A stretch of DNA of 64,000 bases from Octopus sinensis (taxonomy: Eukaryota), in NCBI RefSeq assembly GCF_006345805.1, contig NW_021833009.1:1-64000 (forward strand), written 5' to 3'. Under the pieces are notes generated by a model. It was not told the DNA's origin. It worked only from the letters and a program-made list of their open reading frames with translations, and did not search any database. Of the stretch, positions 13,721 through 64,000 are shown piece by piece (the stretch's first letter is position 1; each line of letters starts with the position of its first letter). Position numbers and translations under genes: made by a program.

Positions 13721-15239
13721 CAGTACCGCTCAAATGTTTCGGACCACCCTATTTTTCTCAATTTCCAAGTCAATCCTAAATTATTTTTATACGGTTCTTT
13801 AGAGAAACTTATTAGATAAGCTTAAATACATTTATTCTATTCTAAAATTTTCTTTAAATATTTTTGTTTGGCGCCAATTGAATATAATTGATTTTTGACT
13901 CGATCATATGTTCCGGACCAGTTGCAATCATATGTTTCGAACCAGTTAAATCTCTTTAAATTTAAATAATTTTTGATTCAATTAAAAACAAAAGACTAAT
14001 AAATAACAAATGCCGCGTGTTTCACTGGTTGATCGGGTCGCTATCATCACTTTTTTTAAGATGGAGCTTCACAAAGAGAAATTGCCGAAAAATTAAAAAT
14101 ATCCAAAACTGCTGTTCAAAGAACAATTTCCAGATATTCATCCGTTGGACTATATTCCGACAGACCCAAATCTGGTCGACCGAGATTGTTATCCCCAAGA
14201 TCTGAACGCAAATTAGTGAGAATTTCGAAAGCAGACCCCACAAAAACGGCAAATCAAATTAAATTTGATATGAAATTAAATTCTATTGTAAGCACAAATA
14301 CAATTAAAAGATGCCTACAAAGAAATAATTTGAATGGGCGAAAGCAATGCCCAAAACCAAGTCTTTCCATATGCCATAAAAAGGCTAGAAAAAATTGGTG
14401 CATTGAGAAATTAACTTGGAGCCAAAATGATTGGGGTAAAATTATTTTTAGTGATGAATGCAAAATAAATTTGCATTCAAACACAAAAAATTATGTTAGA
14501 AGGCCACCAAACTCTAGATTTGACTCAAAATATTGTTTAAAAACACGAAAATTTTCTCCTAGCATTATGGTCTGGGGAGCTATTGCTGCAAATGGATGGA
14601 GAAACATTGTCTTATGCATTAAAAATGTTGATTCCGCAGAGTATCAGAGAATTATAAATGTTGGACTCGAAAATTTTTATGATGAGACCATGTATCTCCA
14701 GCAAGACGGCGCTCCTTCCCATCGGTCCATGTCGACAATGAATTTTTTTCAAAGGAAACAAATAAAAATCTTAGAAACTTGGCCGAGCCAGTCACCCGAA
14801 CTGAATATTATTGAAAATATGTGGTCGGTACTAAAACAAAAACTTTATGATCTGGAACCAAAAGATCTTCCAGAGCTCTGGAATTTGACCAAAAAAATTT
14901 GGTACGAGATTGATAATTCGTACATTGAAAAATTATACAATTCACTTCCAGAGCGAATAAATGCTGTTATAACGAACAACGGAGGAAATATTAATTATTA
15001 ACTTTTATAAGTTTAATAAATTTTCGGTTTTTTTTAAACTGGTCCGGAACATATGATCGAGTATAAAATCGATAATTTTAAAATTGCGCCAAACATGAAT
15101 ATCTGTCCAAGTTTTTAAAATAGAATAAATGTGTTTAAGCTTATCTAATAAGTTTCTCTAAAGAACCGTATAAAAATAATTTAGGATTGACTTGGAAATT
15201 GAGAAAAATAGGGTGGTCCGAAACATTTGAGCGGTACTG
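13721..15239 (+). mobile_element. Full-length Tc1-family transposon with IR/DR-type ~204-bp TIRs, DD35E
   Basis: TA|CAGTACCGCTCAAATG ... CATTTGAGCGGTACTG|TA. TIRs 13721-13924 and 15036-15239, with the outer ~105 bp identical and repeated TGTTYCGGACCA motifs. Confidence 0.97.
14010..15001 (+). CDS. Tc1 transposase with one frameshift in a T-run near 14051-14057
   Basis: MPRVSLVDRVAIITFF/DGASQREIAEKLKISKTAVQR...SGRPR...IFSDECK...QQDGAPSH...WPSQSPELNIIENMW; 35 residues between the second D and the E. Confidence 0.93.
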
Positions 15240-15483
15240 TAATATACATTTTTAATTTGTTAACCTTCACAGAAATAGCATTAAAAAGGAAGTTCAATAT
15301 AATTTATTGATGTACGTTTCTGTCTCTTGGAAATTCGTGGAGGTATATCCAAAGAAATCTGCACTAGGTATCTCTTTTTTGTTGAAATATATTTTAGCGT
15401 ACTGTCTTATTGTCGATCATGATTTAAATATTCTTTTCGAAAGCTTTTCGAAATTATCCATTTTTTCTTTCTTTTCCTTGACC

Positions 15484-16689
15484 ATGCATCTGGATTATCA
15501 CAGCAAATTTTGCGTTGTTGAGCCAAGGAACATTCTCCTCCCAATGATAGACAACAGGAAGTGTTCCAAAATCTCTGTTAATGATATCAGGTGTCGGACC
15601 ACTACACACGCAGGTTTCACAAGAGCTCCAGAGGAGTACTTGTACTTAGAAGGCCATGTGAGTGACATGTACACACATGATCATCTTGTCATGAAGTATC
15701 AAACTTCTACATCTTACAACATGAGGATCTGGTTTTGGCAGACATACACTTGCGCGCACATTCGGCTTCAGTTAGCCCCTACCAAGGAAGAGGCACTACA
15801 CGCTGTTGACCAGTACAGAGCCGGAAATGTAGAGAAATACAAGAGTGAGCCTGACTACCCAGACGATGTGTCAAGGTTCTTTGTTGACGTGACAAACTAC
15901 ATGGAGTCTTTGTCTGTCTCTGTAACCCATTACATCATTGACCCTATGACATACCTACCAACAGGTACTGTCTTCAATGATGATGTTTGCAACACAACAG
16001 CATGTTATCTCAGCGACAAGAAATCCATATATGTCGAATTGTACAGAGATCAGTGCATTCAGCCAAGCAGAATCTCACTGTCTCATTTTGAAGAGGATAC
16101 CTACACTACCATATGGGACTAGTCATTTCATATTGACAAGACATGTTGCTTCCAGTACTGCGGGAATTACTACTGGTCCTCATACGAAGGGTTGATGATA
16201 AACGCGGTCGGGGATTGTCCCAAAATGTGTGTAGGCAGACCACATGTGATGAAACCAGGATGGAAATTGCAAGGTGAAGAACTCTCCATTGACATGCAAT
16301 TTAGAGTGCACGACTGTGAGATTCTTCTTTTAAGAACGAGGACTCATATGAGAGTGAACACAGCTGACCTTCATTACTTGACGCCAATCAATAAATCGTA
16401 CAGCCATGCATCAGGTTTTTACACTAAGATGGCCATGTAGGAGTGGATCAATCCAAGTGGTATGTTACATCCGTGCTGTCTTGGACCCTGGTGCATTAAT
16501 CAGCGTGACTGGACATCTGGCCTTGTGAAACCATACTGTATAGCAGACACCTTTTTCGTCAACGGGATATACATTGACCATGACCTGGAAATAGGGGTTC
16601 CTTATCGGGAGTATCACGCTGAATTCAACATCTCATCATTTGTGACAGACATTGTCCCTACATCTAACCTCGTGTGCTCTGCAGGCTAA
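15484..16689 (+). other. Endogenous viral element: rhabdovirus-like glycoprotein (G) ectodomain with in-frame stops
   Basis: ORFs 15307-16122, 16192-16440 and 16462-16689 share one frame. Motifs APTKEEALHAVDQYRAG, EPDYP, SVTHYIIDPMT, FNDDVCNTTAC, KTCCFQYCG and HDCE...VNTADLHYLTP are collinear with VSV G (TPSVEQCKESIEQTKQG, NPGFP, HHVLVDEYT, FINGKCSNYIC, KACKMQYCK, LCQE...ISPVDLSYLAP). No transmembrane anchor seen. Confidence 0.85.
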
Positions 16690-25144: not shown

Positions 25145-26501
25145 CACCCCTCGACATTAAAATTCGAACACTTAATTTTAAGCAAATTTTTAATCATTTT
25201 CAATAAAATAATTTAGTTGAGCTTCTTTATTTGTATTATTCTAACTATTTTAATATTTAAATATATATTGAAACATAATTTTAAAGAATAAAGCAAAAAA
25301 CGAGAATTTCATGACAAAAAAAACCGAATAAAATTTAATTAGTAGCTTGAATGCCTTCTTTTTCTGTTGTAAACTTCCAAACTACGATTTTTCATTGAGC
25401 TAACAAGTTTTCTGATGAATTCCATTGGGATATTTTCCCAAATTTCCGATATTTTTTGCTTTAGATCAATTTTTGTACTTGTTCTGCTTTCTGACGTATC
25501 ACTTGAAAGAAAGTTTTTAATGTGAGCCCAAATGTGTTCGATTGGGTTCATGTCAGGTGACTGAGGTGGCCAGTCGAGCAAATTAATATTTTGAGACGAC
25601 ATATATTCTTTAGTTGCCTTAGATGTGTGGCAAGGCGCATTATCTTGTTGGAATATATAGTCGCTCAATCCCATTTTATTCGCTGAATCTTCAAGATTAT
25701 TTGCCAGAATATTAATATATTCCCCAGAGTTCATTTTTCCATCAATAAAAACTAATTTCCCCATTCCGAAATACGAAAAACAGCCCCAAACAAGAACTTT
25801 CCCTCCACCAAACTTAAAACTAGGTATTATCTTCGCATATCTCAATTTATTTCCTTTTTTTCTGTATTGATACATTCGTCTTGAATGGGAAAAAAGTTCA
25901 AAACTACATTCGTCGGAGAAAATAACTTTCCTCCATCCGCTGTCGGAAATTGCAAGAAATTTTTTAGATATTCCATATCTGAGAGCAATATTTTTTGAAC
26001 TTAGAAATGGTCGTTTCTTTACAACTCGTCCATACAAACCTTTTGAGTTTAGAATTCTTGTTATTGTGCGTGCTGAGACTTTTTTTGTGTAATTTTTTCC
26101 ATTTCTGAAGACAAGGTAGCTGCGGTTCGAAAATTATCAGTTGATAATGATAAAAGAATCCTAATTTCATCTTGACTGAACTTGGGTGGCCTTCCAGATC
26201 CAGCCTTTCTGCACGTAATCCCGGTTTTTAGATATTTTTTAAAAATTTGTCCTTTTTTGAAATTATTCATTTCTGTCTAATAAAAATTGTATTCTGCGAG
26301 TTGAACAAAATACCGTTCGGAATTATTTGTCACTAGAAAACACGTTTCTGCTTTAATTTTGAAAATTATATGTTCGAATATATATTTAAATATATAAATA
26401 GTTAAAATAATACAAATAAAGAAGCTCAAATAAATTATTTTATTAAAAATGATTAAAAATATGCTAAAAATTAAGTATTAGGATTTTAATGTCGAGGGGT
26501 G
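25145..26501 (-). mobile_element. Tc1-family transposon (DD34E), frameshifted and probably lacking the first HTH
   Basis: TA|CACCCCTCGACATTAAAAT ... ATTTTAATGTCGAGGGGTG|TA with long imperfect TIRs. Transposase: SGRPP...VIFSDECSF...QQDNAPCH...WPPQSPDMNPIEHIW. Confidence 0.95.
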
Positions 26502-32619: not shown

Positions 32620-33755
32620 GAATGCGTCGATCGTCTCATTTCCAACTCTCCTCTTTTGGTATTCACACAATAAAAATGACTTTATTTAGTCGTTTTGTGA
32701 CGACTTTGTCTTCAACTCCTAGGGGGCAAATCGTCGTTCTAGAGAGTTGACTTACTCTTTGCTGACCAAAATAGCCACGACGCTCTCCAATTTAAGTAGG
32801 AAATGTTGAGTCGGCTACACCACTACATCCCAGATATGATGTGTTTGTCTTTGACATTTATGCACATAATATTTCTCCAAGTCATCGCCTTGTGTAATTA
32901 TTGGTCTTAGTTGGACTGAGTATGTTATTTATATTCCTTATTTCATTCATTTTGAATATTACAGTGGGTGACAGTTCTGTGATGACTCAGAAAGAATTGA
33001 TTAAACGCAATTTGTCGGAAAATAACAAAAATACAAAATATAATCGGTTCATCACAAATAAACTAGACTTGTCCCCTGAACTTATGAAACTGAACAAAAT
33101 CCGAATGAATAGCCTTAAGAAGAAACTGCTCTCCACTAATAATCCGCATATACTTGGATCCTGCAATCTGCATTAATTGATATACCACTCCCACCAGGAT
33201 ATCCTTTAATAACACACACTCAAACACCTTTATAACACTCGGAATATTCCTACAACTCGCCATTTCCACATATTTCCCCACCAACACTGCACTCTCTATC
33301 CCAATCCTACCACGGAAACTCTCCACAAGTGACACCACTCGCACAAATTTCTCGGCAGGTCCAACCAAAAGGTCACTTTCACTACAATTCGACGACCTTT
33401 CAACAAGACACTCCAGCAAATCTATAAGTTAGCCAAATTTATACTAACTGTTCATTATGAGGAATATTGACCCTTTAAACTTATCGAATTGAGCATGTTG
33501 TTTTACTATAATAGCACTCAGCAGACTGCAGTGTCCATTAAATAGACAAAACTGGTCACTCCTTTCCCCAATAAGCATTAATAACAATTCTACCAAAGAA
33601 GGAGACAACAACCGAGTCTAAATATATTAAATAATCAACAATTCACATATTTTAGCCCCAATAAGTAAGACAGGAAATCCAAATGTATTAACCACAGAGA
33701 AACAAGTTTGACGACCCTCTCAATTATCTAAGGAATATAAAAAGGTGTTTTACTG
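32620..33755 (-). pseudogene. 5'-truncated duplicate of the 3' end of the large helical-repeat gene
   Basis: Near-identical to about 37700-38843 (ORFs 33063-33419 and 38151-38507 differ at 2 of 118 aa) but lacks the upstream exons. Confidence 0.7.
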
Positions 33756-33965
33756 ACGTTATTTATAAACATATTCGTGGTCAACGAAACAAGTTAAAGC
33801 AGGATCGGTACGTAGTTGATGGCTACAACTGCTGTCACATACCCTGGAAACAGGGGTCAACATGTGGCACTGGAACTAGCCTCTTCTACAAGCCGTACCT
33901 TGCTCTCCGAAGCTCAGGTTATGTTCTTGTAGCCTATGTGAATATTGTTAATCAGAGGGGTAGTG
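33703..33965 (+). repeat. ~263-bp direct repeat, left copy (host sequence, LINE APE fragment, host junction)
   Basis: Repeated at 35218-35482 with about 5-6 differences. The middle encodes FVVNETKLKQDRYVVDGY...GTGTSLF, an APE-like motif. Confidence 0.9.
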
Positions 33966-35217
33966 GCTATGGGAAGCCTCATGATGGCTATGGGAAGCCT
34001 CATGATGTCCCCGGGGGATACAGGCCCATTTCCTTGCTTCCCGCTATATCTAAAATCCTAGAAAGGATCATGCACCGAAGGCTCCTGGAGGAGCTGACGG
34101 TGGTTGACGCCCTCCCGGAGTTCCAATGGGGATTCAGGCAGGGTCGTTCATGTGGAGACTGCTTGTGGAAGGTGTCTTCCGAATGAAGAACGCCCTCCAG
34201 AAAAGGGAGTGTGGTATGTTAGTTAGTCTTGACATAGAAAAGGCCTTCGACTCGGTGTGGCACGACGGCCTGCGAAGTTCCCTCGCCACGTGTGGGGTTT
34301 CTCCGTGTCTAAGGCGCTGGCTGTCGGGGTTCCTCGAATCTCGCGGTCAGGTCGTGCGACACCAGGGGGTCTTTTCTAAAGTCGCAACAGTCCTTCGCGG
34401 GGTCCCTCAGGGTTCTGTGCTGAGTCCCACACTGTTTAATATCTTTATGGCCTCTGCACCTATGCAGTCAATGCTCGTACTGGAATGGTGATCTATGCAG
34501 ACGACATTATCCTCTGGGATCAGTCGATGAAACCAGAGTGTGCGTGTCGTAGGCTACAGGTTGCTGTGGATGAACTTGTAAACTGGTGTGGGAGTAGGGG
34601 TCTAAAGATGTGTGCGGACAAGTGCAGTGTCCTTAAAGTCTGTAAAAGGACGAGGGGTTACACTAATTTTATCCCTAGGTTATCGCTGGACGGGTCAGCG
34701 ATCGCTGTAGTTGATCGGACAACTTACTTGGGCGTGGTCTTCAAGCAGTCAGGTAAGTTCGATGATCACATTGCACGTACTAAAATGCGTGCAATGCAGC
34801 GATTAGGCGCGTTGCGTGCTTTCCACTTGAGGAGAGGTGCCTGGTCCGTGTGTTCAACGCCATGGTGTTACCCGTGTTAACCTATGGCGTGCACGCTTGG
34901 CACTTCTGCGAGGACAGGGAGAAGTACGTTGACGCGCTTAAGAAAGTAAGAAGACGAGCCATCCGGCTAGCCTATGGCTTAGGATGGCGTGATGAGCTCT
35001 CCAACGCCCAGGAATTGTCCCTCAAAGGCCTCTCTGAGGTCCTAGAGAAGATAATGACTGGGTGGCAGGTAAGACGGTAAGTCCTAACCTGTGGTTGTGT
35101 AGAGAGGCGAGCGTGTGTGCTGGACCGAAAAGGCAAGAATGCCGAAGGTCTCCTTATGTTACCTCACTAACAGCCTCTCTAACTAATTATTTAAAATAAA
35201 AAATTTTCCAAATTTTC
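33966..35217 (+). mobile_element. 5'-truncated Jockey/I-group LINE (RT domain to 3' end), frameshifted
   Basis: YRPISLLPAISKILER...QWGFRQGRSC...LDIEKAFDSVWHDGL...GVPQGSVLSPTLFNIF...YADD...TYLGV. GC-rich. A 21-bp tandem duplication (GGCTATGGGAAGCCTCATGAT x2) sits at the 5' junction. Confidence 0.95.
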
Positions 35218-41988: not shown

Positions 41989-43534
41989 TCATGATTTAAG
42001 ACGTATGTGATACTCCCCATTAAGTGCACTATATCGAACCCATGAAGATGACTTGTAGAATGCCTTATCAGTAATCGACAACGACCTGATCTATTACCCC
42101 CACGACTACCTCACATTGATCCCCGACAGTGTAAAGTTGACCAACTCAAACTCGACAATGATTGGTATAGACAGATAGGTAGTGCTACTGTTCACTAGTG
42201 TTGTGGGTAATGTGACTTGTGCACTGAGAGTACATGTCCGTTCTTTCTATATAAACATCATAATCACACAAAAATAAAATTATTTGATAATTAATTAAAA
42301 TATAAAATAATTTAATTAATTATATGGTTAATCAAAAATATAATAAAGAAGGTAACCGAAAGTCCGCGAATAGTCCACACAAGGCAGTTCTGGTTGGGAT
42401 CGTACTGACACGTCCCTCTACTGACCTTAATCTGAGGCATAAAAATATCAGAAGGCACAGGAAGAAGTATTTTAACCATTTTTGCAGCAATATTAATCCT
42501 ACTACTAACCTATCCACTACAACAACACAACAACCCTGCCCTGAATCACAAATTGTGACTCATTTCTCTCATATTTGGCACTCACATCGAAAGGAGGCTC
42601 ATTCTAGGCCAGTAGTGACACATATAACTGAGAGGGTGATTCGATAGGTCATTAACTCAAACTCTCCATCAGGGGGGATAAACTGGATCACATTCTGCCT
42701 CTCAAAATCAGCCAAGGAGACACACTGGTGGAACTTGACGTCCTCCAACATGACTGATTAGGCACACAATCTACCAGAATGAGGCCTCTGTTCTCCATAT
42801 TTGGGCAAAATGACTCGATCAGCGAACAGTAGCCTCAGTTCAGGCATTCCACTAAGTCTGGTTTTGAGTTTAAGCAGTCCTGTGACGTAGTTATGGACAA
42901 CATTCCCATTTGAGTGGATAAGGACATTACTCTTCTCCACCACGTCCAAATAGCACGTGTTGTTGGAGTACTGTAGGCCTGGTGTCCTCCAAGACACGGA
43001 ATCCGTCACGGAAGTGGGTGGTTTGGTGATGCGAGGTTTGCGGACAATGAAGGACTTGGAGATTGGTTTTATATATCTGTGGGTGTTGGAGGGGAGTACT
43101 CTCGAAGGATGCCTGGGTCGGTGGTTTGGGGGATCCCCCAGTCGACCAGTTCGTCTAATAGTTCATAGATCAAAGGGCAGTTATCAATTTCCGCAATGTC
43201 GGTAAAATCACGGAAATAGTGTTGGAATACACATATTAGTTGATGTAGGAATTCAAAGCACATTGCTGTATTTGTGTTGGTGTGGGTGAGAACGACGACT
43301 AGGGTTATATTGGCACAATACAGTAATAATTATTGTTTTTTATATATAAGTAATATGTGTCCTCGTCTATCAAGATGGGAGAATTGTGTCCTTCCTCCAC
43401 TAAAAGGGGGAATGATTTGATGCACTGTCCAGATATGTTGGGCATGTATTGACGACATATTAATGGCTATAATAGGTTAGGTTGTTTATTACTTCTGCTG
43501 AGTTGTCCAGAATATAAATAGCAGATATTGTCAT
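41989..43534 (-). CDS. AP1M1: Clathrin adaptor AP-1 complex mu subunit
   Basis: MTISAIYILD...IYELLDELVDWGIPQTTD...SVSWR...LSGMPELRL...LEDVKFHQCV...FIPPDGEFELMTYR...WVRY. An apparent extra base in a homopolymer near 43020. Confidence 0.9.
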
Positions 43535-43826: not shown

Positions 43827-45620
<1,794 letters not shown>

Positions 45621-45737: not shown

Positions 45738-48700
45738 ATGGGTGTTGCATTCATCAGGTCATTCCTCGATGATGGAGATATACAAAAATATGGTGTGATT
45801 CCCTTATTCCCAATCGTAGAGTCACTGCCTTATATACTAAGAGTAGTACTGGAGTCGTGCTGTCGAAACTACGATTCAAAACAGATTAAAAGAAATGAAA
45901 TATTAAAAATAATAAATTGGAAGCAAACTCTCCAGTCTTGTCCTACCATTTTGTTTAAGCCTGCCCGAGTAATGCTGAAGGGCTTCACGTAATGAATTAT
46001 CTAATGAGTGTAGAGCCATTCCTATAGTGTGTGACATGGCCACTATTCGTGAGTCACTCCACACTCCACTTGTCACACATGTTAAACCACAATGCCAATT
46101 AGACATGTTTATTGACCATTCAATCCAATCAGAAGTGTATTAATTAATATAATTAAGTAGTGGAGGGAGCCACCTCAAACTGTTTGGAGAGACGTGTCCA
46201 TTCCACAAGAAGGAATGCTTATTGTTTGAGAGTATTTATAACCCCAGGTCAAACCATGCCAGCCAAGAGAACGAATTCAGAAAGCACTACGAGCAATATA
46301 GAATTCTCAAAGTAATCAATTAGTTAATTAATATTGCTCTTTGTGGGTCATTGATTAGTGGGCGGGTGAGACGTTTGATGACATTGCTGTGGTCCCTCCT
46401 GGTCTGGGAGTGCCCCACCACTTTAATGTCGAGTTAATGGCCCGTTTTATAATGGAGAAGGACAGCCAGGTGTACCCCGACAGTGTGATTGGGACTGATA
46501 GTAACATCTCCATTCTCAATGGACTGGGAATACTGAGTATTGGTTGGTGGTAGTCTCACTAACTCAGCCACTTGCTCTGCCCAGTCGGAGTGTGCTATAT
46601 TAGGGCTGGCAATCCACATGAGTCTCCTCCAAGTGGTGGGTTGTCGTATTTACGGACGACTCAGCCCCCACGTCACCTCCACTGACATTGTGTTGGGAAT
46701 AATTAGAGTCATTAATCACTCATTCATTCACAGGCTCTCAAAGATGAACTCAAATCGGACAATTTTGTCGAGTTCTTTGGTCCTGGGGTTTGTCTTCTCT
46801 CTGTTAATGAACGAATGACTATTGCCAACATGAGCAATGAATTTGCCGCCATTGCTGCCTTTTTCCCGCCAGATGACATACTAATTAAACACGTGGAATC
46901 AATTAGTTAATTATTTATTTAATTTGCAGAGGGAGGTCATGTGGGTAATAAAATAAAGCAGTACTTCCAATCAGCAGGGTTATTTAGAAGTGAGTGTTGT
47001 GGAGATGAAAGATTGGAATATTCTAAGGTAATTTTAATATACATATGTAGATTATAAATATTAATCTTGGTTTAATTGAACCAATTTGTACTTTCAGAGG
47101 GGAGAGGTGTCTTGTCCCTGAACTGCCCTCATTTATTAAGCAGAAAATAACGAGTACAGACATATCATCTGCCTCCATAATCCACTACACCAATCATACT
47201 GTTTCTTCGGTCATCCTGGCTGCTGGTTTTGTCCTATAAATAATTTGTATAGGGATTATGGCCAGAAATGCAGTCGAAGCTGGTCTTGCTGTAAAACCCA
47301 ATGTGAAGTGCAGTCTCCTACCAGGGAACTCAATGAGTGTGTCCTACTTACTTCTGAGTGGCACATATCACTACCTTTGCTCTCTCGGGTTTGTTTATGG
47401 TGATATATGCAGGTTTGTGCTGGTGGGGTACGGATGTAGTGATTGTGTGAGTAATTATGAGTCACTCAACTCGACTGATAATGTGTGGTAGTTTCTAGAA
47501 CATTCTAGAAGGGTCTGCTAACATTGGCGGTCACATCAAAGAGTTGTGAGTATTTGAAGCATCAGGATATTTTGCTGGTGTCTCCTTTGTTTGTGGTTGC
47601 ATATGCTCTCGTGGGGGATGTCTCGTTTGACTTTTCCTCACAGTCAATTGGTTAGTGTTTAGTATTATGTTAGGTCGACATTGGAAGAGTGGTAGACAAT
47701 TATTTCTATCAGATATATGGCCTACCAGAGAACAGATACAAGTTAATTAATTAGTGTTGATTGCCAATTAGACGAGTATTATTAATGATATCAACCCCAC
47801 TCTATATCAACAGACTAAAAAGAAGATACAAGTAATCTCATTGCTGATTGGTAGACTGGCTCAGTCGAGTGGAATAAAATAGACTCAGTGGGACATGCCC
47901 TCTTCCAGTGGAATCCCAGTCCCCCTCAGTCCTTCCATCCTATATTGTGCTTATATATAATCCTCACTATTAGGACTACACCAGTAATAATAGAATTAAA
48001 TCATTATTCAATTCTCGGGCAATATTGATTGTTGGTGATGATGTCACGTCTGGTTATATTGCACCTGCTGGGAGTATTCCGAGGAATAGTCCTGTCTCAC
48101 ACTTTTTACTTTCTACTGGGTTGGGTTATTGTTGTGTATTCAGGCTTGTCCCCCGTGATTTTGGGTCCTATGGGTCACATCGAGGGTCCCACCAAGTTAT
48201 GGTGAGAGGGATGTTCTGCAATCCAAAGCTGGAGAGATTATTGAAAGGGAAATGCCAATTTATTAGCAGTGTGAACTACTGTGGGTGTCAAGTAGTGCAC
48301 TACCCCTCCCTCGAGTGCCTTCCACTCTGGTCTGCCTGTGCCCGGTATAGCCAGGAGGGAGTGCCACTCATACTCATTGCTGGGCATAATTTCGGGAGTG
48401 GCCCACCGAGGGATTGGACAGCCAGAGGACTAGGAGTGATGGTATAGAGTGAGTACAAGTGTAGGGGATTAAATGTGTCATTGCTTGTTCCATGTCCGAA
48501 TGGGTGAGGTTTGATTTGATTAGTACTGGGATTGTGCCCCTGTGCTTTGCTGCAGGAACCACATCTGACACTCTGGGGTTGGTTGGGAATGAGTTGTATG
48601 AGATTGACTTTCCCTTTGTGGTTGAGCCTAATTGTATGGTTCGATTGAAAGTAATGGGTGGCCTATTCATTTTAGGTGGACTGTGAAATGGAGTGTTATG

Positions 48701-48792
48701 TCACACTTGAATGCAGAACTGATTTTGAAATAGCAATGTTGAACAATGGAGGGGCATTTCAATATTGCTATCGACAAATTTGTTCTCGATAA
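45738..48792 (+). CDS. ACO1: Cytosolic aconitase/iron-regulatory-protein (ACO1/IRP) homolog with degenerate active site
   Basis: [69 protein letters not shown]...[24 protein letters not shown] and NGG are collinear with human ACO1. Start approximate. Confidence 0.92.
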
Positions 48793-52400: not shown

Positions 52401-53513
52401 ATTAAAATAATTACCTCAATTTAAGACTGCTTCTGCAAGAAAATTTGACGTGACCTATTTTATCCCAAATAATGAAATATCATTATGATTTGATACCAAT
52501 AAAATGTATTTCCAATATATTCATATACATAACTTAGCGATAATCGGATAGGATCCTTAAATAAGATTCTGATCTTTATTTGATTATTCTACTTGGATGA
52601 TTTTTAGACCCCCTTAAGTGAGGAGGTCCAGTTAAGGCGATAATCATTTCATGAAAATTGATCGATGTTTGGTTTAGTTTGGTATGACTTTCAAGCACAA
52701 CTCGAGAACTGAAAATATATGGTCTCACAATGAAATACAGTAATATGACTTATAATTAATTATTGCCAATAAGATGATTTATGAAAACATGTCTATAAGC
52801 AAGAGCTGTTGTTTTGTAAATTATCCTACATCGAACAAGATTAAATCGCCAACTTTTGTTAATTATTTGATTAAATTTTTATATTTTTATCTGGAGAAAT
52901 GAAAACAATCATATCGACAAACAATCTGCTAATTATACCTAAGCTGTTCTCTTATGAGTATTGCAATAACTAAAATGGGTTAATTAAGAAAATCTCATTA
53001 GAGAAATACATGTCTTTTTCACGATATTACAATATGGGGATTCATTTAGTTACAATAAAAGAGTTTGGAAACACTTTTTTGCAATAAAATAAAGATTAAT
53101 AGATCTATGTCATATAAAGTTGTAATGAAACAGGAACATTTACTAAGTTATGATAAAATTGTGTTTTTGAACTAGTTCTACTTGTCTTTGTACAATAGTG
53201 GAAAAACTTTATTTTTGTTCATTTTGGATCATATAGTTAAAAAACAAATCAAGTTGAAATTAAATACCATTCACTACACTGAAAAGTCAAAATCAGGCAA
53301 GATGACCATCGACTATTTCTCAGTCTCTTTAAAACTACTCAAAATCTTCCAAGAATGCTAACACAAACCACGTGAAGAGAAATCCAAGCATTAGCAACCT
53401 TTTCTAAAAATTCCGCAAATATGGTAAATGCATACAACGAAAGGCTGTGATTGATAGTTAATCAACGCCCTAATACTGAACCAATAACTTATCCAAAATG
53501 GCCCCCTAGGCCA

Positions 53514-53597
53514 GATGCCTGGGTCGGTGGTTTGGGGGATCCCCGGGTCAACCAGTTTGTCTAATAGTTCATAGATCAAAGGGCAGTTATCAATTTC
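53514..53597 (-). repeat. 84-bp copy of an AP1M exon segment (43108-43191)
   Basis: Ungapped match with 4 substitutions. Confidence 0.92.
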
Positions 53598-53699
53598 AAG
53601 CTAGTGAGAGGATTCAAAGTTTTTAGACTTTGGAGTCCATTTTCGTGTAAACTGAAAATTATGTCAGATGACCATGAACTCAAAGAAGATCTTAGAACA

Positions 53700-54310
53700 A
53701 CCAATGAAGTTAAACTAGAGTTTCGCAACTGAACATTGGAGGAGTATGAGTTAAATTTGACACCTTTTTAGTGAGGACAGAAAAAATGCGAATATTGTTA
53801 ATATCAATCAAGTTGCTGTTCATTGAAATGTGCGATGAGACACTTGATTTAGCATTGGAAATTGACTTGATGTCTCCTTGGTAAGTTCGTTTGGGTCTTT
53901 CGTTGTTTCTGTGTTGAATTGTTTGTTGGATGCAGAAAAAATGATATGGGAGCCGAAAATTTGAATTTTTATTTCTTAATAATAATTTTTTCAAAAGTGG
54001 AGCTAACTCGATGAAGAAGAGACATGATGAGGTGACAGAATAATCTTTGGCCTTGTCTTGTTGGTAAGGCTTTCAAATGTGCACTGTCCTGCATAGATAA
54101 TATCAGTAATATCGTTGATATTCAAATTTGACAGGGGACCAATATATTGTTTGATTGATGCGTCGATTCCATTTAAAATGTCATTTTTCAACAGTTGTCG
54201 TGGAATTCTCCTGGTTGGCACACGGAGCTTTTTTCCGGTTGTACGTATTCGCCCAATTTGGGAACAAAATTCTTCAAAACATTTTCCAAGATTTCAGCCT
54301 TCTGGGATCC
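53700..54310 (-). mobile_element. R4/Dong-like retrotransposon N-terminal ORF relic
   Basis: RRIPRQLL...NINDITDIIYAGQCTFESLT resembles the 'I..IN.LIYAA...Y' region of R4-like ORFs. Confidence 0.45.
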
Positions 54311-59480: not shown

Positions 59481-59926
59481 TTGCAATTAATAATAATACA
59501 TAAACCAATGAATGCACATTTTCAACAAGTAAAAGAACAGGAATCAACTGATTGTTATTTCTTCTGTATAGTTCTAGTTTTTTCAACCTGAGACATGAGA
59601 CAGTCACACTATAGTGGTTTATTTATTAAATAATAGTTATTTTGGTAACAGGAGAATTGCAGTGGCAATGATTACATATTCCATCAGTTGAAAAGACATA
59701 AGGCGATTCGTCCACGCCTGTTATAAGGAAACATTTCTTAGCTTTCATGTGGGAATATGCAAACAAACTTAAAACAATTTTAGAACTAAATTATTTCCCC
59801 ATAAATGAAAAGAAATCTCAATTTATCATTCTGTGTTAATTAAACTAATCTCTACAAATTATTAGAATTATTAATTAATAATAAATAAATAATAAATATA
59901 ACCACAAATAGTGAACACAACCCACA

Positions 59927-61295
<1,369 letters not shown>

Positions 61296-61394
61296 ATTTA
61301 ATTTAATAAAATTATAAATTAATTATAAATTAAATACTTAATTGGTAAAGCAATTAAGGAATAGATATGAATTTCCAAATAAGATTATAATAAA

Positions 61395-62730
61395 ATGAGT
61401 GTTTCAGTGGTGTGTGACAATGGAACTGGGGTATAGAATGATATATATAAAAGTATGTAAAATGTGGGTACAACACGGAGAACATCCCTCGACACGTATT
61501 CCCAGCAGTAGTAGGATTCCCAGTAATCCGAGCAGACGTGAAGCAGGACAGTAGAGTGCGAATAAAAGTAAGAGTGTGTGTGAGTGAAGGACGTGATGGT
61601 GGGGTGGGAGGCAGCGGACAACCGTGCATACCTGTCTCTGAAGTACCCAATGGAGAACGGGATAATCCGTGACTGGGAGTGCATGACCCACCTGTATGAC
61701 TACACATTCGGAGTGGACTGCCTCAACCTGGAGTGCAAGGACACACGGATAATGCTGACGGAACCCCCCAGCAACCCCCTGAAGAACAGAGAGAAGATGG
61801 CGGAGGTACTCCCCGCTGACCACCCCAGCTCATGTTCGACAAGTACAACTTCCACAGTATATATGTGGCCATTCAGGCAGTGCTCACTTTGTACGCGCAG
61901 GGTAAGGAGGTGTGTGATTGCAGGACTGTTTACTGGGATTGTGTTGGACGCAGGTGATGGAGTGAGTCACGTCTGTCCTGTCTATGAAGGGTGTTCTATT
62001 CCCAGTGCCATTATGAGACTCAACCTGGCTGGGAGGGATGTCAGTTCTCGTCTCCTCAAGGTTGGGGGGTGCCCTCACTCTAGCTCGTCCAACTCAGAGG
62101 ATACAACCTCAACAGTCATGCCGACTTGCAGACTGTTGGAGAAATGAAGGAACAGTTGTGCTACGTCGCCTATGACATTGCCAAAGAACAGAAACTGGCC
62201 ACCGACACTACTTTTGTCAGAGATAGCTACACGGTTGGCCTCTCTCCTCACTCACAGTTGCCTGATGGAAGGACTATCTCCATCGAGGAGGAACGCTTTA
62301 TGGCTCCTGAGATCCTCTTCCATCCTCAACTCGTCGATATTGAACAGGGCGGAGTCCATTCCTTATGCTTCCAGTCCATCAATGTACAGAATGTTCTCGA
62401 ATGTTCTAGAAATGTGACATCGACGTCAGGACCAGTCTTCTTAAGGAAATCAACCTATCCGGAGGCACTACCATGCTCCCCGGATTCCCCTCTCGCCTAG
62501 AAAGGGAAATTAAACGTCTCCACTCTGAGAAAGTGGGCACTGCCAATGTTGAGTTGTCTTGTCATTGGCAGAAGACCCCCATTAACATTAAGGACCCCCC
62601 TTATAGGAAGAACTTGGTCTTCCAGGGGGCCGCAGTCCTGGCCGGGGTCATTCAGAACAATGACTCCGCCTGGGTCACCCAACAGGAGTATAGAGAGCAG
62701 GGAGTCAGGTGTATGGCTAAACTTAAATAA
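61395..62730 (+). CDS. ACTR2: Actin-related protein 2
   Basis: VVCDNGTG|[73 protein letters not shown]. Confidence 0.95.
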
Positions 62731-62801
62731 GATTAATTTAATTTAAATCAGGATATATTTTAATTGGTTTTAATATAATAAAATAATTAAATATTCTGGT
62801 G

Positions 62802-64000
62802 ATGTTAGACGAGTCTTTTACTATTGGTGAACAGGCCAAGCAGAACGCACTAGCATCCATCAAAAACCTGTTTCAAGTACAACTAGTGAGTCATGTCACA
62901 GGACCCCAAACAATTAGACCGACTGGACCAAATAAAACTAAGAAATTCACAAAATCTTGTATTTATATAAAATAATGCAGAAAAATGCGGAATCAAACCT
63001 AAGAAAGTTTATTGAATGTTATGTCAGTGATATTCGAACTGCCATTGATTTGTTAGAGACATCAAAGTCCAGTTATAACCAAGTCCTCGACTGGTTGTCC
63101 TCCCTTCCCTAAAGACCAGCATGAACTCCATTGGGGAACAAGTCAAGGATTCTGTCCTCACATCCCCCGCCTTTGATAAACTTGCCCAGGAGAACATTGA
63201 GTATGAAAAGGTCACTTTTCTCCCACAACGACCTCCTAGTTAAAGTCAGCACTGTCCAATGCAGAAATCATCAACAAGGCCTCCTCCATGTTTGAAAATG
63301 CCCGCCAATTTATTAAAGCAGAGAACTTTCTGAGCGCACACGCAATGTAATTATTCCATTCTTTCTGGAACGTTCTGGAACATTCTAGAATGTTCTGGAA
63401 TGTTATTGTGGTTATTTAGATTGATGGAATTGGAGCAATGTGGGCTCAATCTGGTGTCTGAGGGGGAACTGGATGGGAGGATCCTCACGTTCTTTGAAGA
63501 CCTGGACAATATTGTGGAGGAACTGTTTGGAAGTCTGACAGTAGTGATTCGAAGACTGGTCCTCCACCTGAGGAGGTCTCCCTCTTCTGTGGTGACAGCA
63601 ATCCGCATAATCGAACGAGAGTGCAAGTATGTGTTTATATTAATGCAGAATTGATGCCAGTTTTGAGGAACTGTTCGAAAGGACAAACTTTAGACCAAAA
63701 GGACGACCAAAATGCCTGAGAAAACGTTTTTTCTCACTGATTGGTGAAAACATTGTGGAACGAGTGGAAGGGTGTCAAGTGGAGGACAGAGGGGAGGAGA
63801 CGTGGATCCTAAAATACCTGGAGAGTGTGGTGGAGGTGACGAAGGCGGACCTGTGTGTGATAGGAGTATATATAGTGGATAACCAGGCGTACAGTGAGGA
63901 ATGTTTTCCCCGTGAGTACAACATGTTGAGTGAATACAGTGAGTGCTACCACAGGGTGGTGAGTGAGCGAGTATGTGTTGAGAATGAGGAGTAGTTGGAG
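62802..64000 (+). CDS. EXOC3: Exocyst subunit Sec6/EXOC3, 5' part (runs off the window)
   Basis: ALASIKNLFQ|DPKQLDRLDQ, LMELEQ...L...FFEDL, LRRSPSSVVTAIRIIERE and GRPK match EXOC3 motifs. Confidence 0.85.

Follow-up and report, generated by a model that had tools for sequence, protein, structure and literature searches.

A gene in the window, by which we mean the whole 64,000-nt stretch of Octopus sinensis assembly G000 analyzed here (contig C9480), encodes a member of the AcnA/IRP family that appears to have lost its aconitase activity. Our best explanation, in which we place roughly even confidence and which draws on sequence comparison, is that the product is an IRP-family pseudoenzyme that would act as an always-open, IRP2-like RNA regulator with altered specificity. 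The features on which this reading rests are collected in Table 1.

Table 1. Features of the IRP-family gene in the window, in order of position
Feature	Position	Strand	Remarks
IRP/AcnA-family gene, predicted pseudoenzyme	45738..48792	+	19 exons; 861 aa in intact copy L019
Exons 1-5	45738-45988, 46014-46136, 46161-46223, 46248-46311, 46359-46542	+	
Q86 equivalent	45978..45980	+	Lys
63-nt exon, phase 2-2	46161..46223	+	CPFH at 46195-46206; site of the 73-aa insert of IRP2
DSNI	46497..46508	+	D205 kept; H207 is Asn
Exons 6-10	46568-46707, 46734-46905, 46930-47027, 47051-47225, 47253-47388	+	
R269 equivalent	46740..46742	+	Lys; contact of IRE loop U17 in IRP1; alignment near gap
P368-C437 segment	47081..47188	+	36 residues versus 70; S371 is Thr; invariant SGPKRP and K379 lost
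HYTN	47183..47194	+	C437 is Tyr; RNA contacts T438 and N439 kept
Exons 11-15	47413-47482, 47509-47650, 47674-47741, 47772-47831, 47855-47946	+	
GYGCSDC	47426..47446	+	C503 and C506 kept; M504S as in IRP2, copepod IRP1B, and Gordionus
One-base deletion (frameshift), window copy	47917..47918	+	L019 has extra A, L020 extra C; runs X3 and X4 show A
Exons 16-19	47974-48119, 48144-48441, 48465-48650, 48676-48792	+	
TSGYIAP	48046..48066	+	D678G, H679Y, S681A; P682 kept
SHRG	48175..48186	+	R713 kept
GPPRDW	48400..48417	+	S778P, S779P; R780, D781, W782 kept; PPRDW also in rotifer P0390

The window is part of a second, compact genome that is distinct from that of the octopus host. Within the assembly searched (2.72 Gb in 13,516 contigs), the host IRP gene lies on C15, has long introns and all catalytic motifs, and gives exon matches 83-98% identical to the Octopus bimaculoides protein. 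The 18 introns of the window gene span 23-47 nt, with a median of 24.5 nt. Dicyemids inhabit cephalopod kidneys and have a median intron of 27 nt (excerpts of PMC6543705), and comparable introns among 51 animal genomes are attributed to Dicyema japonicum and myxobolids only (excerpts of PMC13644364). From these intron lengths and the known introns and habitat of dicyemids, rather than from a marker gene, we infer that the compact genome is likely that of a dicyemid worm. Chromidinid ciliates are further residents of cephalopod kidneys (excerpts of PMC12953835); a ciliate source is unlikely, since the genes stop at TAA or TAG under the standard code and the named carriers of the insert described below are animals.

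Upstream of the IRP gene, an IMPDH gene (about 43900-45600, plus strand) ends approximately 135 nt before the IRP start, and IMPDH fragments that are 95-97% identical occur on at least four other small contigs. The presence of a second parasite species in the assembly was weakened by the five IMPDH loci checked on other small contigs, all copies or fragments at 95-97% identity with the IRP gene beside none of them, so that one lineage is likely. Elsewhere in the window are a Mononegavirales polymerase fragment (5237-5749, minus strand; PF00946, E 7e-45) and a weak match to a rhabdovirus glycoprotein (15256-16119, plus strand; E 7e-4), both probably remnants of viruses endogenized in the parasite genome, as well as Tc1-type transposases, reverse transcriptase, an adaptor medium subunit, a kinase, an actin-family gene, and Sec6 (14060-14998, 25342-26133, 33692-34877, 42761-43329, and 59902-63991).

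The exon model was derived from protein-guided spliced alignment together with spliced contigs, with several single junctions taken from summed gaps. It starts at the ATG at 45738, ends at the TAA at 48792, and yields the four-domain AcnA/IRP architecture, with matches to PF00330 and PF00694 and a full-length alignment. Spliced contigs covering the gene were present in four runs (X1 to X4) from two studies, and we judged them to be transcript derived because the introns are absent. Summed gaps agree with the model in 5 of the 10 records compared (three exactly and two with one added base), and the remaining five represent an approximately 95% identical form differing by two to nine letters. 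At 48436-48464, records of the diverged form omit 29 letters versus 23; the GT at 48436, upstream of the modelled donor, may serve as an alternative splice site. Two other, more distant contigs (X1 record 2 and X4 record 24) have loose ends suggesting that an orthologue may exist in another lineage; translated by eye, the end of X4 record 24 reads DINAGL versus SVTTDH of IRP1, as if D678 and H679 were lost there too.

The initial annotation described the exons as open and collinear to the C terminus, which does not hold for the window copy: a base is missing near 47917, and the spliced frame ends soon after this frameshift. Copy L020 has the base near 47917 and lacks another at 48485. Because the 47917 frameshift is absent from two other copies and from the spliced contigs, it is likely an assembly error, and the frameshifts of the window copy and L020 alike are likely long-read or assembly errors. 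After 16 differences in or beside introns were set aside as alignment noise from the 40 examined (of 102), 15 of the 24 scored differences were silent and 9 were not, giving a pN/pS of about 0.17 (p = 3e-5 versus neutral site counts). The gene is under purifying selection, as this excess supports. Taken together, the spliced contigs and the silent excess indicate that it is not the ordinary pseudogene, neutral and unexpressed, that the initial annotation had allowed for.

Dispersed 3′ fragments of the IRP gene with introns kept occur at C7755:257237-257726, on C8331 (about 53500-54000), and on C10781 (L057:3283-4498), and were possibly captured by mobile elements. We rejected these matches as full orthologues, since they are 3′ fragments only. 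Those on C7755 and C8331 are degraded, with five frameshifts each, and show the local look of decay.

Using IRP1 numbering anchored on 2b3x, we found that Q86 (now Lys), H207 (Asn), C437 (Tyr), D678 (Gly), H679 (Tyr), and S778 and S779 (both Pro) are lost and that R536 and R541 are gone, while D125, H126, H178, D205, E302, C503, C506, R713, and R780 are kept. We take Q86, H207, R536, R541, D678, H679, and S778 to be catalytic or substrate residues. Retention at catalytic and Fe-S sites (9/18) resembles the background of 146/260 among positions that do not vary across 29 intact relatives, so the catalytic and Fe-S sites are under no special constraint any more. Two of the three Fe-S ligand cysteines remain, and C437 is Tyr in both the DNA and the spliced contigs, which run gap-free through 47051-47223 (X1 record 3, with one silent difference; X3 record 15, to 47202); splicing therefore does not restore this residue. 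The cluster ligands are C437, C503, and C506 (excerpts of PMC4184891 and PMC7181819), and mutating any one of them turns IRP1 into a constitutive RNA binder (excerpts of PMC7181819).

These comparisons support a protein that is predicted to be enzyme-dead as an aconitase. The initial annotation had placed HYTN and GPPRDW as in Table 1 and had also named DSNI, GYGCSDC, SHRG, and TSGYIA (the last at 48046-48063); all six motifs are present, and the catalytic losses that it read from them and its retained C503 and C506 were correct on mapping to IRP1. A separate mitochondrial-type aconitase with intact motifs and a likely targeting peptide is encoded on compact contigs C10363 and C12596, which answers whether another intact aconitase is present and, along with the residue changes, supports the proposal of an enzyme-dead protein in a reduced parasite. 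An intact parasite IRP1 was not found among the best candidates from PF00330, PF00694, and a domain-4 query in a parasite part of the assembly that is possibly incomplete.

The gene further carries a small exon at the IRP2 insert site, the skipping of which would preserve the frame and the CPFH of which aligns with that of bat IRP2 (P0157). Contigs of all four runs cross this exon and no skip joint was listed among them, contigs being prone to drop rare forms. Isoform pairs with and without the segment exist in lamprey (962/905 aa), amphioxus (958/895 aa), and brittle star (945/894 aa), and exon position and phase are identical in these pairs and in the host cassette. The host cassette exon (C15:13344485-13344580) corresponds to the PNPGGG half of the IRP2 insert and the parasite exon to the CPFH half; no host CPFH was present in the 17 kb scanned around the host cassette. 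Our first guess, that CPFH marked an IRP2 orthologue, was weakened because 68 of the 223 long proteins fetched have the motif and 43 of these are catalytically intact. Since CPFH is also found in invertebrate IRP1 isoforms, it is not diagnostic for IRP2. A phmmer search of the insert segment alone against PDB returned chance-level matches only. The Cys of CPFH is presumably C201 of the IRP2 insert. In the literature, C201 is a proposed heme binder (excerpts of PMC2267205), iron-dependent degradation in cultured cells does not need the insert, and the 73-aa insert is described as unique to IRP2 with an unsettled job (excerpts of PMC2267205 and PMC3048577).

According to the initial annotation, the IRE pocket is retained in this protein, and this proved true in part. 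Ten RNA contacts are kept, namely T438, N439, P682, R713, R780, D781, and W782, together with N298, E302, and R688, which we take to be RNA contacts as well; the altered ones are R269K, S371T, S681A, and K379, which falls inside a deletion of approximately 34 residues. The shortened segment is contiguous in the spliced contigs (X1 record 3 and X4 record 19). In IRP1, the residues that touch the IRE are S371, K379, and R269 at the loop, T438 and N439 at the backbone, and S681, P682, R713, R780, D781, and W782 at C8 (excerpts of PMC3048577 and PMC4184891). The C8 pocket thus keeps five of its six residues, all five of which are also kept in bacterial AcnA, and none of the loop contacts is unchanged. 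The four altered residues weigh most for IRE affinity (excerpts of PMC4693282 and PMC7181819), and their mutants lose 8- to over 100-fold in affinity (excerpts of PMC4693282). Overall, retention of RNA contacts (10/14) is not above the background of 146/260 invariant sites (p = 0.19). The change of all four residues and this background-level retention count against our best explanation.

We considered it somewhat unlikely that the protein has a role independent of RNA, working through CPFH and C503/C506 as a protein scaffold or to sense heme, metal, or redox state. Such a role would suit the conservation of that motif and both cysteines, the change of four residues for IRE specificity, the 34 residues lost from the loop site, and a retention that is alike in all domains (37/74 to 40/64), but it does not explain a local pattern in which RNA contacts persist beside lost catalytic residues: T438 and N439 next to lost C437, R780 to W782 next to lost S778 and S779, and R713 next to changed R712, with R688 persisting as well. 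Candidate targets bear on the same question in both directions. Canonical IREs were not found upstream of the three distinct parasite-type ferritins (C7755, C2502/C12622, and C8901), as an RNA-independent role would allow, nor were they found at SDHB or eight NRAMP loci; the initial annotation had suggested looking for such hairpins in ferritin and transporter UTRs. Rfam IRE scans found none either, with 82 of 1,029,844 candidates scored genome-wide. Speaking against a sensor or scaffold, a CAGUGA hairpin precedes the mitochondrial aconitase gene.

This hairpin lies at C10363:45107-45122 (minus strand; L026:5108-5123) and at C12596:49035-49050, and consists of a CAGUGA loop on a 5-pair stem approximately 35 nt upstream of the likely aconitase ATG in both copies, with a chance expectation of 0.072 per 8 kb strand. 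The bulge carries U rather than C and the lower stem is weak; the element matched none of the Rfam IRE models and, when folded, is no more stable than shuffled sequences (z = -1.5 and -0.1). We regard this U-bulged hairpin, the one candidate target found, as a lead only. A figure caption has the ACO2 IRE first appearing in chordates (excerpt of PMC4041422), and an earthworm ferritin IRE has been modelled with a bulged U (excerpts of PMC4184891). In the host, an IRE-like hairpin (L058, C12:72175357-72175394) scored 29.9 bits versus a cut-off of 34 bits. For FBXL5, which controls vertebrate IRP2, a search with PF01814 (hemerythrin) matched nothing in the assembly, not even in the host, and so was without power.

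Binding of canonical IREs in the manner of vertebrate IRP2, the version put forward in the initial annotation, is improbable: the C8-pocket residues are mostly kept, R269K and S371T are conservative, and the segment 47240-47488 scores 49.3 bits on IRP2 versus 40.0 on IRP1, but S681 is Ala, the K379 region is deleted, and no C-bulged IRE was found at the candidate targets (ferritins, SDHB, and NRAMP loci). Least probable is a decaying pseudogene or a still-working aconitase, since the single frameshifts of the window copy and L020 lie at different sites that are each absent from other copies, spliced contigs hold the 47917 base, and most scored differences are silent, while for all the extreme branch length and the persistence of D125, H126, H178, D205, R713, and R780, the losses of C437, S778, H207, R536, R541, D678, and H679 speak against catalysis.

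Phylogenetic placement of the protein shifted with the sequences included. Its branch is of extreme length; it groups with Gordionus and copepods when these are in the tree, joins bat IRP2 at 100/98 once other long branches are left out, and joins lamprey once IRP2 is left out (trees after the first included one IRP2 row only). In AU tests, a constraint with IRP2 was not rejected (p = 0.27) and placement with spiralian IRPs was borderline rejected (p = 0.026 and 0.053). These values and the 100/98 grouping favor a true orthologue of vertebrate IRP2 that arose by an old duplication rather than by independent invention, a history that we nonetheless find doubtful given the mobility of the branch. 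Copepod and rotifer proteins are likewise drawn next to IRP2, and with the query removed, the vertebrate genes (IRP1, IRP2, and lamprey) come together as a single clade (SH-aLRT 96). Moreover, the 23/81 derived residues in common with IRP2 fall within the 0.19-0.35 range between other dead lineages, and a single lamprey gene makes both isoforms. Long-branch attraction is the simplest reading of the shifting placement. An independent origin is the likelier history, though unproven, as the trees cannot place the gene; of the initial claim of an independent IRP2-like protein, the likeness was strengthened by the CPFH exon, and the independence stays at that grade.

Similar losses recur among relatives. 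Of the fetched proteins, 16 of the 77 that carry the insert have lost S778, versus 0 of the 162 that lack it (241 proteins of at least 780 aa, 2 of them without the RDW motif). These counts are not independent, because insert-bearing sequences served as the queries in assembling the set, which also includes isoforms of the same gene. The 16 proteins represent about three lineages: the copepod IRP1B group, Gordionus, and the rotifer Didymodactylos. At the same site, human IRP2 has Asn and bat IRP2 has Ser. Vertebrate IRP2 (IREB2; PDB 6vcd_A; bat P0157) resembles the window protein in having an IRP fold without aconitase function, a domain-1 insert with CPFH, GYGCS at 503-504, and several residues in common. 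However, its insert is 73 aa rather than 21 aa, the PNPGGG half being missing here, and it keeps C437 and the R269, S371, K379, and S681 that are all changed in the window gene, which has far more active-site losses. Invertebrate IRP1/cytosolic aconitases (octopus, oyster, amphioxus, and lamprey) belong to the same family, reach 38% identity, and have the insert at the same place with the same intron phase, but they have all catalytic motifs and both insert isoforms, whereas the window gene is predicted to be dead and is seen in the included form only.

The closest parallels in CPFH insert and S778 loss are copepod IRP1B (Lepeophtheirus P0171 and Tigriopus P0162), Gordionus P0043, and rotifer Didymodactylos P0390, the last also having PPRDW and a lost NRNFEGR motif. 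Unlike the window protein, these keep all three Fe-S cysteines and R269, S371, K379, and S681, and with IRE contacts intact they are better candidates than the window gene for canonical IRP2 mimics. Engineered IRP1 cysteine mutants and human C506S are comparable in that they bind RNA constitutively once a single Fe-S ligand is lost (excerpts of PMC7181819), whereas the window gene is natural and fixed and its RNA-binding site is also changed. Our literature search, with most subscription papers outside its reach, returned nothing about IRP2-like pseudoenzymes of invertebrates or an IRP from a dicyemid. Salmon louse IRP1A and IRP1B have reportedly been the subject of a paper. That paper, Piccinelli and Samuelsson 2007, or the supplements of others may already cover copepod IRP1B and invertebrate inserts.

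Returning to an always-open RNA regulator with altered specificity, we propose that without C437 a cluster could not close the protein, which, judging from IRP1 biochemistry, would stay in its open, RNA-binding shape. A hairpin would be held mainly via domain 4 (R713, R780, D781, W782, P682, and R688) together with T438 and N439, and the remodelled loop site may read a diverged loop or bulge. Iron or heme might be sensed via CPFH or C503/C506, setting protein amount or activity; this is the weakest step. As to history, the splice form with the insert would have become fixed in the parasite's single IRP gene and catalysis would have been lost, a course parallel to those of vertebrate IRP2, copepod IRP1B, and the nematomorph and rotifer proteins. 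A more far-reaching version, which we advance as a speculation and think rather unlikely, has IRP2 invented on five or more occasions (in jawed vertebrates, copepods, nematomorphs, bdelloid rotifers, and dicyemids) by fixing an ancient CPFH cassette and dropping catalysis, with the dicyemid's only IRP gone furthest: its Fe-S ligand lost and its RNA site rewired in step with a U-bulged mitochondrial aconitase element rather than ferritin.

That a CPFH exon and lost catalysis occur together repeatedly in unrelated invertebrates suggests that the insert functions in a non-enzymatic regulatory state, and the 21-residue insert of the window gene would offer a natural minimal version for testing this. 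The protein as a whole may likewise serve as a natural test of which IRP residues are required for RNA binding, and it would show how a parasite of roughly 30 cells manages iron with a single, enzyme-dead IRP.
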